DNA of 64,000 nt from Escherichia phage FL33: the sequence record PP400788; one strand, written 5' to 3'. Both the position numbers and the translations under genes were made by a program. Of the stretch, positions 320 to 59,516 are shown one piece after another (position 1 is the first letter of the stretch; each line of letters begins with the position of its first letter). The notes under the pieces are model-generated. The model had not been told where the DNA came from. It saw nothing but the letters and a program-made list of their open reading frames with translations, and searched no databases.

Positions 320-327
320 TATAAATA
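320..327 (+). promoter_or_regulatory. T4-type late promoter TATAAATA upstream of holin t
   Basis: Exact TATAAATA about 20 nt upstream of the t start codon, followed by GGAGG RBS. Confidence 0.55.
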
Positions 328-22665: not shown

Positions 22666-23137
22666 TTGTTTTACCTAAAACAATAGTAGGAGAATCGTCA
22701 AATTCATGAATTTTTAGCAATTTTGGATTTAAATTATTCCATACATAATAAATAAAGTATGATAAAGCATCTTCACTCGCAATTATAAATTTATTTCCTT
22801 TATCTATTTTCCAGTCATATACTGAATCGTACGAATAAAAAGATAAAGGGTTATCATTATATTGTTCTGCGCTAACATTAATGTATTCGGATTTAGTAAA
22901 TGCTTCAATTGCTCTAAACGGACTATTTGACACAGTTTCAATAATTCCGATCTTTTTAAGTTTTATTTCAGCATCTTCTGGAACTGGCATTGAAACGAAA
23001 TTTTCTACGAGATACATAGGGTTACGATAACCCTTATCAATCATTACGGCTACAGTAATTGGAACATCTTTAGCAAACGACATGCTATTACTGCTAATAT
23101 ACATTTCAAACAAAATCGCTTCCATAATTTTCCTCAA
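22640..23137 (-). CDS. Hypothetical protein (modB-soc interval)
   Basis: 165-aa ORF. Confidence 0.55.
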
Positions 23138-23746: not shown

Positions 23747-23778
23747 AAAATGAAAAAAGGAATCCCGGAGGATTCCTT
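23747..23778 (-). terminator. Intrinsic terminator after soc
   Basis: GGAAUCC-UCCG-GGAUUCC hairpin followed by UUUUUUCAUUUU on minus transcript. Confidence 0.6.
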
Positions 23779-23785
23779 AAATTAT

Positions 23786-24043
23786 TTAACCACCGACACC
23801 TGGTGTCGGTGTAACAGTCCAAAGACCTTCATTAGCAGTGATCCATTCAGTACGCTGATTTTCTTCATATACTGTAGAATATGCTGCTTTTTCAGAAGGG
23901 AATGTCTGATAATGAGCACCAGAAATTTTGTGAACATCAGAATAAAGAGGGAAAGCTACAGAAATTTCTTTACCCTGAATTGTACCACCATCAACTGCTT
24001 GGTCAAATGTTTTGATATTAACATAACCGCGAGTACTAGCCAT
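23786..24043 (-). CDS. soc: Small outer capsid protein Soc
   Basis: 85 aa; MASTRGYVNIKTF..ISVAFPLYSDVHKISGAHYQTFPSEKAAYSTVYEENQRTEW matches remembered T4 Soc; C-terminal ~10 residues differ. Confidence 0.9.
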   Translation of the reverse strand: MASTRGYVNIKTFDQAVDGGTIQGKEISVAFPLYSDVHKISGAHYQTFPSEKAAYSTVYEENQRTEWITANEGLWTVTPTPGVGG

Positions 24044-24073
24044 GTAATTCTCCTTTTATTTAAATTACATGAT

Positions 24074-24081
24074 TATTTATA
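24074..24081 (-). promoter_or_regulatory. T4-type late promoter TATAAATA for soc
   Basis: Exact TATAAATA on minus strand about 30 nt upstream of soc ATG. Confidence 0.55.
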
Positions 24082-24111
24082 ATAAATTCTCGCGGCTTTT
24101 AAGACGAGCTG

Positions 24112-24630
24112 TTAATAACCTCGGTCTTGACGAGCGAAGTTTTCAGCATTTTTCAGATAATAAAGTTTAAAGATTTCTTCTGCTGTAAGACCAAGACCTT
24201 GGAACATGTTCAGAACGAAATGGAGAATATCAATCATTTCAAATTTAATTTCCAATTGGTCTTGTGGAGACAAATCAGTAATCAGAGTTTCACGGCGTTC
24301 ACCATGCTGAGCTTTCCACGGCTTCCATACAGCAGATGCATCTTTTTCGCCATTGCTCATACCACCAAGAGAAGTCAGAAGTTCGCGGAATTCATCATCA
24401 ATATAATCTTTCTGATTACGCAGCCAATCAACAACTTCACCTGCAGTAGCCAAATCATCAGGATGACGGTTATATTCAGGTTTATCTTTAGCTAAACGAA
24501 TCTGCAGAGATTTCTGCATGTCAAGCATTACCTGCAGCGGGTCTTTTTCATCACCGAGAATATCCCAATATTCATTTTGAGCTTTATCAGCGCCTTCAAT
24601 CAGTTGTGAACATTCGTTAAAGTAAGCCAT
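24112..24630 (-). CDS. 56: dCTPase/dUTPase gp56 (dCTP pyrophosphatase, MazG-like)
   Basis: 171 aa from ATG at 24630 with AGGAAA RBS (ORF-track start gives 203 aa); T4 gp56 is 171 aa. Confidence 0.82.
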   Translation of the reverse strand: MAYFNECSQLIEGADKAQNEYWDILGDEKDPLQVMLDMQKSLQIRLAKDKPEYNRHPDDLATAGEVVDWLRNQKDYIDDEFRELLTSLGGMSNGEKDASAVWKPWKAQHGERRETLITDLSPQDQLEIKFEMIDILHFVLNMFQGLGLTAEEIFKLYYLKNAENFARQDRGY

Positions 24631-24664
24631 TATTTTTCCTTTCAATTCATGGGTTAGTAGATTA

Positions 24665-24690
24665 ATTATACAATAAATATATAAAGCAAT
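24665..24690 (-). promoter_or_regulatory. MotA-box middle-promoter-like element upstream of gene 56
   Basis: Minus-strand ATTGCTTTATA then 11 nt then TATAAT. Confidence 0.4.
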
Positions 24691-24701
24691 AAGGAGGACA
24701 T

Positions 24702-24902
24702 ATGGTACAAAAATTAATGGCACTTGTTAATGCCATCAAAGGTAATAAAAAACGTATAGCTTTTACTATTTCTGCTATGATAGGAATTTTACTTTGGAAT
24801 TTTGTTTTATCACCAGTTGCTATTGCTCATGGCGTTAGTATTCCAGTAATTACTCTTGATACATTCGTGGATTTAGCATTTGCTTTAGTTGGGTTAATTT
24901 AA
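24702..24902 (+). CDS. Small membrane protein, plus strand (66 aa)
   Basis: ATG preceded by AAGGAGG; two hydrophobic segments; imperfect late-promoter-like AATAAATA 23 nt upstream. Confidence 0.45.
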   Translation: MVQKLMALVNAIKGNKKRIAFTISAMIGILLWNFVLSPVAIAHGVSIPVITLDTFVDLAFALVGLI

Positions 24903-25927
24903 ATCTTAGCATATTTAGATAGCCGCATTTTAGCCATCAACCCTTGGGCAATATTATTTTTCATATATTCCATAATTTGTTCAGGGGTTGCACCTTCCTT
25001 TCTAATCATATCATTGACGTCTTTTGATTTCCAGGGAGATTTATCCCAAAACATAACCCTTTCTCCTGCATCAACTAATTTAGTCATTCGTTTGATAGTG
25101 TCAGGGTGACGAGGTTCATTATCTAAAACCCACACTCGTCTATCTTTAAATGGAACAATTTCTAGGTCTAATTGACCGCCTGTAATAGCTATACCATTTT
25201 CAATAAAAAGCGAATCTATAGGTCCTTCTAGAACATATACATCGCCATCTTTAACCCGTTCGACACCGTAAATTTTTGTTGCCTCAGGATAAGCTTTGAT
25301 GGTAATATACTTTTGTGGAGCATCTTTCTTTAATGCACGCCCTTGAAACGACTCGGCTTTTCCATTAGCATTATAAATTGGAATAACAAGACGAGGCTCA
25401 GGTATTTCCTTTTTATATGTTCCCGGTGCTATGCTATTAACTAATTTAGGCCATTCAGTTGTAAACCAAAGATATTTCCATTTATCCTTTGGAATACAAC
25501 GAGCTTTTACGTATTTTATAATTGGATGGTCTTCCGCCAGTTTATCTAATCTAATGCATGACGGAAGAGATTTAATTATTTTCTTCTCAGGTTGTTTAGG
25601 AAGTTCTTTAGGTTTTTCTACTGGACGACTTTTACCTTTTTCTTTTCTTATTTCAAAGATATACTCACGATATAAATCAGGTTCAAACTCCTTTAAATAT
25701 ATTCCGATTGGTGCATGATAGTTACAGTTATAACAATGAATATTTCCTTCATTATTATCGCCATAATACCATCCACGAGCTTTATTCTGGTCGGTTTTTG
25801 AATCTCCACAAACAGGGCATCTAAACCGCAATTTAAAAGTTGAACTATTATTTACTTGTGTGAATTTAGGTAAATGAGCTAATGCACGGTATGCAAACTC
25901 ATTATCAATCCAAGGTATTGATGACAT
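24899..25927 (-). CDS. 61: DNA primase gp61
   Basis: 342 aa as T4 gp61; N-terminal zinc-binding CPVC...HCYNC motif. Confidence 0.9.
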   Translation of the reverse strand: MSSIPWIDNEFAYRALAHLPKFTQVNNSSTFKLRFRCPVCGDSKTDQNKARGWYYGDNNEGNIHCYNCNYHAPIGIYLKEFEPDLYREYIFEIRKEKGKSRPVEKPKELPKQPEKKIIKSLPSCIRLDKLAEDHPIIKYVKARCIPKDKWKYLWFTTEWPKLVNSIAPGTYKKEIPEPRLVIPIYNANGKAESFQGRALKKDAPQKYITIKAYPEATKIYGVERVKDGDVYVLEGPIDSLFIENGIAITGGQLDLEIVPFKDRRVWVLDNEPRHPDTIKRMTKLVDAGERVMFWDKSPWKSKDVNDMIRKEGATPEQIMEYMKNNIAQGLMAKMRLSKYAKI

Positions 25928-29369: not shown

Positions 29370-30525
29370 TTAACTGATCTAGGTCAGTTTCTAAATCAGC
29401 TGCTGATTTACTTTTACTTTCTGGAGATTTAAATTTTTCAACCTTTGAGTTAATTAATTCATCAACTTCGGCTTCAACAATTTCATTACTATCAATAGCA
29501 CCTAATTGATAAGCACGTTTAATAGCATCTCGGAATGGTTGATGCTTAAATAAAGGACCCCAGAATGTAGTGCAGTTGGTATCTTTTGCACGCCAAGATT
29601 TTTCTTCGCGAATCATCTCGCCTGTTTCTTCGTCAAGAAATTCACGAGCATACCAGCCATTTTTAGGTTTTACTACAAATCCTAATTCAAGAGCCATATC
29701 TAACAATCCAGAATAAGGATCGATACCACCGTCAAATTTAACATCAATAAAGAATTTACTTTTTTCTTTAACGGTACGAGATTTTTCTACATTTAGAACA
29801 AATTGATACCCCTGAAGATCAGAACCATCTTTAATCTGGCGCTTACCGATAATGAATACAGTATCAGCCGAATACATTACGCCTGTACCACCTGTCATCA
29901 CGGTTTTACTAAACATTTCAATTGTTTCAATTGTATGGTTAACCGCAACGCATGGAATATTTTTAATACTAAAATAAGGAGTAACAATACGGAATAATGA
30001 CTTCAGCGATTTAGCACGAGTCATATCTGCCACAGATTTTTCATTCAAGGCATCTTCCGTTTCTTTCTTAGAAGCCATATTACCGATTGAGTCGATGAAT
30101 ACAATAACCTTTTCACCACGCTCAATAGCTTCAAGCTGATTCACCATATCAATTTTCAGTTGTTCAACTGACTGAATTGGTGTATGAATTACTCGTTCCG
30201 GGTCAACTCCCATGGATCGCAAATAAGCTGGAGTGATACCAAATTCGCTATCATAAAATAGACAAACTGCATCAGGATATTTGTTCAAATACGCCGCAAC
30301 CATAGTCAAAGACATATTTGATTTAAAGTGTTTAGAAGGACCTGCAAAAATGGTTAAACCAGACTGCATACCACCATCAATCGCACCGGAAATAGCAATA
30401 TTAAGCATTGGGATTTTTGTACGGATTACATCCTTTTCATTAAAGAATTTAGATGTAGTCAGTTCAGCAGTCATTTTAGAAGTGGAAGCTTTAATCAAAC
30501 GGGATTTTAAATCTGCAATAGACAT
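29344..30525 (-). CDS. uvsX: Recombinase UvsX (RecA/Rad51-like)
   Basis: 393 aa; N-terminus and core highly similar to remembered T4 UvsX. Confidence 0.95.
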   Translation of the reverse strand: MSIADLKSRLIKASTSKMTAELTTSKFFNEKDVIRTKIPMLNIAISGAIDGGMQSGLTIFAGPSKHFKSNMSLTMVAAYLNKYPDAVCLFYDSEFGITPAYLRSMGVDPERVIHTPIQSVEQLKIDMVNQLEAIERGEKVIVFIDSIGNMASKKETEDALNEKSVADMTRAKSLKSLFRIVTPYFSIKNIPCVAVNHTIETIEMFSKTVMTGGTGVMYSADTVFIIGKRQIKDGSDLQGYQFVLNVEKSRTVKEKSKFFIDVKFDGGIDPYSGLLDMALELGFVVKPKNGWYAREFLDEETGEMIREEKSWRAKDTNCTTFWGPLFKHQPFRDAIKRAYQLGAIDSNEIVEAEVDELINSKVEKFKSPESKSKSAADLETDLDQLSDMEEFNE

Positions 30526-30602
30526 TCATTTTTTCCATAGGCATCATTATATTTTCCTCACCGGTTAAAGATAGAGTAATTATAACACAATAAATTTAGG
30601 CA

Positions 30603-58796: not shown

Positions 58797-59516
58797 TTAG
58801 GATTCTTCTAAATGTCTTTTCTGAAAAGTTGATACCATACTACGATACGGTTCATTTGGATATCCATGTTTTATAGCTTCCTTTGTAAATTTTCTCCATC
58901 CACATTTAGTTTCTTTCCAAAGCTCGAATAATTCATCTTCATACTGCCATATAGTTAAATGAGAACGCTTTGCAGCTTTAATTCCATTAATATGCTTTTC
59001 TTTTACTACAGGATTGCTTAGTTTCTTTTTAATAATATTACTAACTTTTCTAACAAAAACTGGGTCCTTATATCGTTGCGAAGTTTTTATTGAAGTGTTT
59101 AATTTAGCTTCCGGCGTGGATGTGACCTCTTTCATCTTTTTCTTCATATGCTGTATATGATTAGGATTTTTCCATAAATTTATAGAATGCTTTTTGCATT
59201 TTATCCTAGTTTCATCTGCAACCTTTCCTCCTTCACCCCCGTATGACAGGTTAACGCAGTTTTTTCCATATTTCAATTTACCTGCCATGATATATAATAT
59301 TTCGGCTTGTACCATTTTATCATAATTATCAAAAACTTCTAAAACCGTTTTTGATAATATATGGTCATTTGACACTTTTACACGTTCTATATAATTTCCA
59401 CTACCAACATACGAATCATTGATGTTATTAGTTATATGTCGACCATAATAGTATTTCTTAATACCTGTCTTTAAATTTAATATTTCAGTTTTATAGATAG
59501 TAAAATATTTTTTCAT
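58797..59516 (-). CDS. Putative GIY-YIG-like homing endonuclease (candidate mobile gene)
   Basis: 239 aa; N-terminal KKYYYGRH..SYVGSG resembles GIY-x10-YIG; Lys-rich C-terminal half; start overlaps upstream ATPase stop. Confidence 0.45.
   Translation of the reverse strand: MKKYFTIYKTEILNLKTGIKKYYYGRHITNNINDSYVGSGNYIERVKVSNDHILSKTVLEVFDNYDKMVQAEILYIMAGKLKYGKNCVNLSYGGEGGKVADETRIKCKKHSINLWKNPNHIQHMKKKMKEVTSTPEAKLNTSIKTSQRYKDPVFVRKVSNIIKKKLSNPVVKEKHINGIKAAKRSHLTIWQYEDELFELWKETKCGWRKFTKEAIKHGYPNEPYRSMVSTFQKRHLEES

Follow-up and report, generated by a model that had tools for sequence, protein, structure and literature searches.

The genes soc, 56 and 61 are separated by segF and dam in Escherichia phage T4. 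A compact soc-56-61 interval that lacks both therefore raises two questions: whether the arrangement is unusual, and whether a small open reading frame (ORF) on its plus strand takes the place of dam. The window, a stretch of 64,000 nucleotides from Escherichia phage FL33 (PP400788), exhibits 100% identity to Escherichia phage FL34 (PP400789.1) over the soc-56-61 region, with 0 mismatches over 63,853 nt. FL34 is a T4-like Tequatrovirus whose close relatives include RB32 and RB33, and genome-wide searches were performed on its complete sequence of 167,231 bp. The best explanation, in which considerable confidence is placed, is that the interval is a compact and probably ancestral form, that dam and segF look like insertions in other lineages, that the plus-strand ORF is a real gene and no substitute for dam, and that the spacers hold four working elements: the soc late promoter, the gene 56 middle promoter, the gene for a small membrane protein, and a terminator-like hairpin for gene 61. 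For the locus itself this is mainly a clarification, as public annotation and Nolan et al. 2006 already include both the arrangement and the ORF family; the T4 reference, however, omits a conserved and probably late membrane-protein gene.

Layout and regulatory elements of the interval

The interval is defined by three minus-strand genes. Gene soc (23786-24043) encodes the small outer capsid protein of 85 aa and matches Pfam Soc (E=2.7e-45) and PHROG 1715; gene 56 (24112-24630) encodes the dCTPase/dUTPase of 172 aa, matches dUTPase_2 and PHROG 173, and is annotated as gene 56 in RB32 and RB51; and gene 61 (24899-25927) encodes the DNA primase of 342 aa and matches the PHROG 47 primase family. 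The soc-56 gap spans 68 bp (24044-24111) and the 56-61 gap 268 bp (24631-24898), and all the coordinates and gap sizes of the initial annotation, which gave 68 bp and about 270 bp, were confirmed.

The late promoter that had been placed within the 68-bp gap is present and homologous to that of T4. It consists of a perfect TATAAATA at 24074-24081 on the minus strand, identified by octamer match and by comparison with T4, and is followed by the soc Shine-Dalgarno site AAGGAG (24050-24055, minus strand). Downstream of the octamer, the soc leader agrees with that of T4 apart from one extra A, and T4 P(L)15.32 is marked at the equivalent site in an old T4 record. Only 2 sites in the 64-kb window carry TATAAATA, compared with about 10 expected, and the other copy (320-327, plus strand) is located 19 nt ahead of t, the holin gene. 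Downstream of soc is a bidirectional terminator-like hairpin (23757-23778) with a 9-bp stem, a 4-nt loop and a minus-strand T-run.

A MotA-dependent middle promoter of gene 56 occupies 24665-24689 on the minus strand, with the -10 element TATAAT at 24665-24670 and the MotA box TTGCTTTA at 24682-24689. Middle promoters were defined by a MotA box (a/t)(a/t)TGCTT(t/c)A near -30, located 11-13 bp from a TAnnnT -10 element and with no -35, and the minus strand from 24690 to 24665 conforms to this definition, with 11 nt separating ATTGCTTTA from TATAAT. Counting this one, the window contains 7 matches on its minus strand. The promoter aligns with the mot-box and -10 of T4 P(M)16.53, which is the oriA primer promoter, and the T4 reference ties the transcript of genes 56/segF to oriA primer RNA. 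The counterpart in RB69, Pm:16038, has been predicted with a high score (Nolan et al. 2006, PMC1524935). A middle promoter for gene 56 at this site, as initially proposed, is thus shared with T4.

The plus-strand ORF (24702-24902) encodes 66 aa and belongs to the RB32ORF030w / RB69ORF029w family (PHROG 2024). It is preceded by the Shine-Dalgarno site AAGGAGG (24691-24697, plus strand), and its stop codon overlaps that of gene 61 by 4 nt. In the annotation of the FL34 record it is the sole opposite-strand CDS among ~158 consecutive CDS spanning ~81 kb. Both the AAGGAGG ribosome-binding site and the rare orientation ascribed to the ORF are borne out. Codons 5-13 of the ORF contain the fourth element, a minus-strand terminator-like hairpin with its T-run (24704-24739), which is located downstream of gene 61. 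This hairpin is annotated as a terminator in fPS-90 and is confined to Tequatrovirus sequences.

Distribution of dam and segF

T4 records give the order soc-segF-56-dam-61, with an unannotated ORF between dam and 61, and the T4 arrangement given in the initial annotation, an endonuclease gene and dam near soc, 56 and 61, was therefore correct. Both genes are missing from the interval in the window. The 68-bp soc-56 gap is without any ORF, including one of the SegF GIY-YIG type, and the sole similarity to SegF in FL34 is a 26%-identical GIY-YIG gene at 58917-59498 of the window. A tblastn search of the complete FL34 sequence with T4 Dam, a D12-class N6-adenine methyltransferase, identified no homologue (best E=1.3), and no methyltransferase is annotated in the FL34 record. 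A dam gene located elsewhere in the phage genome would have contradicted the initial annotation, which stands, given that FL34 possesses no Dam homologue and that dam is thus missing genome-wide.

The T4 interval (NC_000866 15331-18963; X01416) possesses the same soc, 56 and 61 genes, the same soc late promoter and leader, the same MotA-dependent promoter upstream of 56, P(M)16.53, which is linked to oriA, and the same 66-aa ORF adjoining gene 61, although the ORF is unannotated. It differs from FL34 in the presence of segF (675 bp) between soc and 56 and of an 879-bp dam cassette that extends from the MotA box to the ORF Shine-Dalgarno site. The borders of the dam indel are sharp: the T4/FL34 alignment stops at the MotA box and resumes at the Shine-Dalgarno site, and between the two lie 879 bp in T4 but a single T in FL34. 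The same flanking genes and the same two insertion points are found in T2-type phages, which carry soc.1 and soc.2, and in fPS-90, whose homing endonuclease gene lies upstream of 56, in the 56-ORF interval at the position of T4 dam; FL34, in contrast, has no cargo at either point.

The contiguous dam-less junction is common to about two thirds of sequenced Tequatroviruses. The 268-bp spacer is matched by 502 phage records, and in 334 of these the match spans its whole length, a count that concerns the 56-61 spacer only, the search at the soc-56 junction being one that merges matches up to about 600 bp apart. The remaining spacer-matching records, T4 and T2 among them, match only from the ORF Shine-Dalgarno site onward. 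About 182 records, or roughly one in three Tequatroviruses, carry a dam of the T4 type, with nucleotide identities of about 94-100%. Far from being unusual, the compact layout is the majority state in the genus (334/502 records). As most relatives are without dam, a dam-less phage is not remarkable, and it is T4 that is the exception at soc-56-61, most of its relatives lacking both dam and segF. Collinearity extends over the whole soc-56-ORF-61 block of 2.3 kb in RB32, RB33, RB27, RB51, RB68 and others. Outside the genus, 56, the ORF and 61 occur without dam in RB69 (Mosigvirus), VR20 (Gaprivervirus), JS98 (Dhakavirus), CGG4-1 (Gelderlandvirus) and Klebsiella phage Roth76, and other small genes lie between 56 and the ORF in ZX14 and Klebsiella phage phi1_146055.

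The absence of dam between 56 and the ORF in five outgroup lineages suggests that the compact state is ancestral and that the T4 form is derived. The interval in FL34 is then probably the ancestral, as well as the common, form of a known variable spot in T-even genomes. T4 segF, a mobile GIY-YIG endonuclease gene, and dam, the 879-bp cassette, look like lineage-specific insertions at two junctions, and the soc-56 and 56-ORF junctions appear to be insertion hot spots. The direction of the change at dam, gain in T4 or loss in FL34, is drawn from outgroup parsimony and not from a dated tree.

The opposite history, in which FL34 descends from a T4-like ancestor with segF and dam and has deleted both, so that the compact layout is derived, is unlikely. 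The high nucleotide identity of dam (about 94-100%) across only a third or so of Tequatroviruses does indicate frequent gain and loss within the genus, and homing endonuclease genes come and go, as illustrated by T2, which has soc.1 and soc.2 in place of T4 segF according to a passage of PMC5931544 that cites Belle et al. 2002. Deletion, however, does not account for the five outgroup lineages in which dam is missing between 56 and the ORF, and FL34 retains no dam remnant, with only a single T from the MotA box to the Shine-Dalgarno site. The T4/FL34 alignment also revealed no flanking repeats at the indel borders that could mediate a deletion, and the Dam homologues of Klebsiella T4-like phages sit at other loci. 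A similarity of 11 nt, AATTATACAAT, between the -10 region of FL34 gene 56 and the DNA upstream of T4 dam was considered as a deletion crossover and rejected, as recombination there would not yield the FL34 sequence.

A plus-strand gene convergent to the primase gene

The initial annotation described the plus-strand ORF as present instead of dam. This reading is not supported, given that T4 possesses the same ORF, with 92% amino-acid identity, between dam and 61. The ORF matches the PHROG 2024 profile with E=1.9e-30 over ORF residues 2-66 and positions 1-65 of the 65 in the profile, and the copy in the window differs from the RB32ORF030w / RB69ORF029w family only by a few conservative substitutions, with the same position and the same convergent orientation beside 61. 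A tblastn search identified the family in 695 phage records, 685 of which cover at least 80% of the ORF, and a search with the ZX14 copy widened it to Dhakavirus, Gelderlandvirus and Klebsiella phages. At every locus examined, representing seven named genera and Klebsiella phages, the ORF adjoins the primase gene and is convergent to it. Identity to the window copy is 86-100% within Tequatrovirus, 52% in RB69, 49% in VR20 and 31-40% in ZX14. Judged from these comparisons, the small gene is no substitute for dam, and all through the enterobacterial Tevenvirinae it faces the primase gene in convergent orientation.

The pattern of substitution is that of a protein-coding sequence. The pN/pS ratio (Nei-Gojobori) is 0.11-0.23 in ORF frame +1, the lowest of the six frames, and frame +1 contains no stops, compared with 1-8 in each of the other five. 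Between the VR20 and TH15 ORFs, dS is 0.58 and dN is 0.095, and comparisons across genera show saturation at synonymous sites but retention of 46-52% of residues. A strong Shine-Dalgarno site and the ATG are kept in all ORF lineages compared; within the window, a Shine-Dalgarno motif precedes only three of the plus-strand ATG ORFs that reach 50 aa, t and the 66-aa ORF among them. By these measures of conservation, the plus-strand ORF is a real, conserved gene, T4 included. It is called in one re-annotated T4 record but is absent from the annotation of NC_000866, AF158101, X01416 (1984) and JS98. A conserved gene for a small membrane protein is therefore missing from the T4 reference annotation, and transcriptomic, proteomic and genetic screens that are based on this annotation miss it.

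The DNA immediately upstream of the ORF contains a putative late promoter. On the plus strand, AATAAATA (24672-24679) ends 22 nt before the ATG, on the opposite strand to the gene 56 promoter and within its spacer, and agrees at 7/8 positions with TATAAATA (-13 to -6), the octamer of T4-type late promoters dependent on gp55, gp33 and gp45. The variable position is -13, which is often A (A or T) in T4-like late promoters (PMC1524935). The distance to the ATG resembles those of the perfect octamers elsewhere in the window, which are 19 nt for gene t and 30 nt for soc. ATAAATA occurs in the window in 8 copies compared with about 40 expected, an approximately fivefold depletion, and it lies 12-22 nt upstream of the ATG in 10/11 lineages despite unrelated flanking DNA: within the gene 56 promoter spacer in FL34, within dam-upstream DNA in T4, and beside the MotA box in VR20. 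ZX14 possesses a perfect TATAAATA located just past the start of another, opposite-strand gene, and CGG4-1 has only ATTAAATA upstream of the ORF. No candidate sigma-70 promoter was found upstream of the ORF on the plus strand, and there is no room for one: in FL34 the MotA box of the divergent promoter lies directly beside the ORF Shine-Dalgarno site, so that only a promoter with a single short element fits. ATAAATA was also considered as a conserved part of the minus-strand middle promoter; this was rejected, as its position relative to the MotA box varies by lineage, ZX14 and phi1_146055 have no middle promoter there, and only the distance to the ATG is constant.

The late-promoter HMM list for RB69 includes no site upstream of RB69ORF029w, and RB69 late promoters have been reported only upstream of orthologues of T4 late genes (Nolan et al. 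2006, PMC1524935). Literature searches identified no transcript, ribosome-footprint or peptide evidence for the ORF. If the gene is expressed late, the T-even late gene set gains a member. As proposed here, AATAAATA, 22 nt ahead of the ATG, would serve the ORF as a gp55-type late promoter of its own, and the mRNA would be translated from the strong Shine-Dalgarno site.

Such a transcript would have further consequences for the neighbouring genes. No plus-strand terminator was found downstream of the ORF through 27200, a distance of at least 2.3 kb, and a late ORF transcript would therefore run antisense into gene 61. The late-type octamer in FL34 lies inside the spacer of the middle promoter, and the two promoters could therefore not be occupied together. 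If late expression holds, dam-less phages offer a compact case of two promoters that overlap at a replication-origin promoter and are active at mutually exclusive times. Taken to its full extent, the reading would be that all enterobacterial T-even phages conserve a gene overlooked in the T4 reference, that it is the only late opposite-strand gene in an early/middle block of ~80 kb, that its product is a late-acting membrane microprotein with a cytoplasmic N terminus, engaged for instance in lysis timing or another process at the inner membrane, and that in dam-less phages its overlapping promoter switches the gene 56/oriA promoter off. This combination is put forward tentatively, as a possibility that leans towards the improbable.

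The same features could mean that the main plus-strand product is an antisense RNA that lowers the level of primase (gene 61) mRNA late in infection and perhaps occludes the gene 56/oriA promoter, with the peptide being secondary. The overlapping stop codons of the ORF and gene 61, the lack of a plus-strand terminator for at least 2.3 kb and the octamer inside the gene 56 promoter spacer of FL34 are all in keeping with this. An RNA alone, however, leaves unexplained the conserved amino-acid sequence, the retained transmembrane pattern and the strength of the Shine-Dalgarno site; a gap of 203 bp separates the ORF from gene 61 in VR20, and in T4 the two promoters are parted by the dam insert. 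Untranslated antisense RNA is, moreover, probably stopped by Rho. A primarily antisense role is therefore distinctly unlikely, and the translated gene remains the preferred reading.

The encoded membrane protein

The initial annotation described a membrane protein with two helices, and only one of these is a clear transmembrane helix. An AlphaFold2 model of the 66-aa protein (mean pLDDT 74) contains helices at residues 2-13, 16-42 and 52-62. The hydropathy peak spans residues 19-42 and falls within the transmembrane helix at ~16-42, whereas the C-terminal helix at 52-62 is too short for a membrane span. A single transmembrane segment, at residues 21-41, has likewise been predicted for the RB69 homologue (Nolan et al. 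2006, PMC1524935). The protein was thus correctly assigned to the membrane, but the second membrane helix is not supported. W32, N33, P38, G44 and P48 are invariant in the family, and the C terminus, ...LAFALVGLI, is hydrophobic. Across eight homologues the net charge is +1 to +5 in the N-terminal segment and 0 to -2 in the C-terminal segment; by the positive-inside rule, the positive N-terminal charge suggests a cytoplasmic N terminus and a periplasmic C terminus.

Pfam, NCBIfam, PDB sequence profiles and a BFVD fold search yielded no relatives beyond the family, and an Rfam search was also blank. A profile search of 1.84 billion representative proteins returned 6 clusters, all of which are phage copies or fragments, and no distant relative of known function therefore emerged. 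Considered together with the putative promoter, these features are consistent with a late-expressed inner-membrane microprotein with a cytoplasmic N terminus. The product would insert in the inner membrane in this orientation, and its transmembrane helix, with the invariant Trp-Asn followed by Pro, Gly and Pro, may act on a larger membrane protein late in infection. Binding of such a partner through the Trp-Asn helix, most likely in the field of lysis timing or the envelope, is a guess made with low confidence. Small bitopic or hairpin inner-membrane proteins of phages (T4 Imm, RI, the T7-type small holins) and those bacterial membrane microproteins that bind larger membrane proteins offer an analogy, as they are similar in size and in possessing a hydrophobic helix, a basic N terminus and a mid-membrane Asn; they differ, however, in having no sequence or fold relationship to the 66-aa protein and another genomic context, and the C terminus of the 66-aa protein is hydrophobic.

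One specific assignment, that the protein is a holin, has entered the databases: both UniProt and BFVD give the name 'Holin' to the OE5505 copy. Small size, a transmembrane helix and a probable late promoter would all suit a holin. The label was nevertheless rejected as being without support: the same ORF is elsewhere labelled 'head morphogenesis protein' or 'dCTP pyrophosphatase', neither Pfam nor PHROGs yields a match to any holin family, and in place of the charged cytoplasmic tail typical of holins the protein has a hydrophobic C terminus. The neighbouring genes belong to replication and nucleotide metabolism, with no endolysin or spanin gene nearby, and a T-type holin gene, t, is already present at 347-1003 of the window. 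A holin function is accordingly highly improbable.

It is very unlikely that the ORF is spurious, a by-product of a 268-bp spacer composed of the gene 61 3' UTR/terminator and the gene 56 promoter: the terminator-like hairpin in codons 5-13, annotated as a terminator in fPS-90, the missing annotation in the T4 reference, the 1984 T4 record and JS98, and a chance of ~1% that 66 codons stay open, which is not negligible genome-wide, would fit such a by-product, but they are outweighed by frame-specific conservative substitutions with low pN/pS and saturated synonymous sites between genera, by an intact ORF in 685/695 records, by a Shine-Dalgarno site and ATG kept in every genus, by conservation of the protein outside Tequatrovirus, where the hairpin is not present, and by the P0025 variant, in which a 3-aa deletion in the ORF keeps the frame.

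Homing endonuclease genes and the insertion point beside gene 56

In phage fPS-90, a homing endonuclease gene (845-1495 of the stretch compared) separates gene 56 from the small ORF that encodes a 66-aa membrane protein, occupying the interval that holds dam in T4, and has an FL34-type promoter and leader upstream. This gene is a third type of cargo at the same insertion point as T4 dam. In the window, a GIY-YIG homing endonuclease gene at 58917-59498 (-) exhibits 26% identity to T4 SegF (E=1e-6), and several further homing endonuclease genes are annotated in FL34, some of which split nrdA-like and thymidylate synthase genes. Soc (23786-24043 (-)) is 85 aa long in FL34, whereas T4 Soc is 80 aa long (243-nt CDS).

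Structure and annotation of the 66-aa ORF

A terminator-like hairpin downstream of gene 61 (24704-24739 (-); 11 pairs, a 4-nt loop and a T-run) falls within codons 5-13 of the plus-strand 66-aa ORF, and its counterpart in fPS-90 carries a terminator annotation. The hairpin is missing from the copies of the ORF compared from RB69, VR20, TH15 and ZX14, and so coding and RNA-structure constraints coincide only in Tequatrovirus.

The conserved ORF is intact in the DNA yet unannotated in the T4 reference records NC_000866 (3239-3439 of the stretch compared) and AF158101, in the 1984 T4 record X01416 (401-598 of the stretch compared), and in JS98 (1501-1701 of the stretch compared). Public annotation contains numerous evident mis-labels, both in the FL34 record, where runs of genes are named 'thioredoxin' or 'molybdenum ABC transporter', and among copies of the small ORF, which is named 'dCTP pyrophosphatase' in CGG4-1 (1501-1725 of the stretch compared), 'putative head morphogenesis protein' in the BW-1 record and 'Holin' in the OE5505 record.

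Late-promoter motifs and other features of the window

Perfect matches to the late-promoter octamer TATAAATA are rare in the 64-kb window, with two copies observed against approximately 10 expected. The copy at 320-327 (+) precedes holin gene t, which has its ATG at 347, while that at 24074-24081 (-) lies upstream of soc. The 7-mer ATAAATA is similarly scarce, with 8 occurrences against approximately 40 expected; besides the octamers and the copy upstream of the 66-aa gene, a putative late promoter, the remaining five sites lie at 22748 (+), 26294 (+), 51250 (-), 3092 (-) and 474 (-). The rarity of both motifs in the sequence suggests that stray late promoters are selected against in the early region.

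The only plus-strand ATG ORFs of at least 50 aa in the window with a Shine-Dalgarno-like motif are t, the 66-aa gene and a 72-aa ORF at 30350-30568 (+), the last of which has a weak motif and probably represents a fortuitous open frame on the strand opposite an early gene. Positions 1-147 of the window map to approximately 244-390 of the linear FL34 record (PP400789.1) and not beyond its end, indicating that the window spans the circular join of the record or a terminal overlap.
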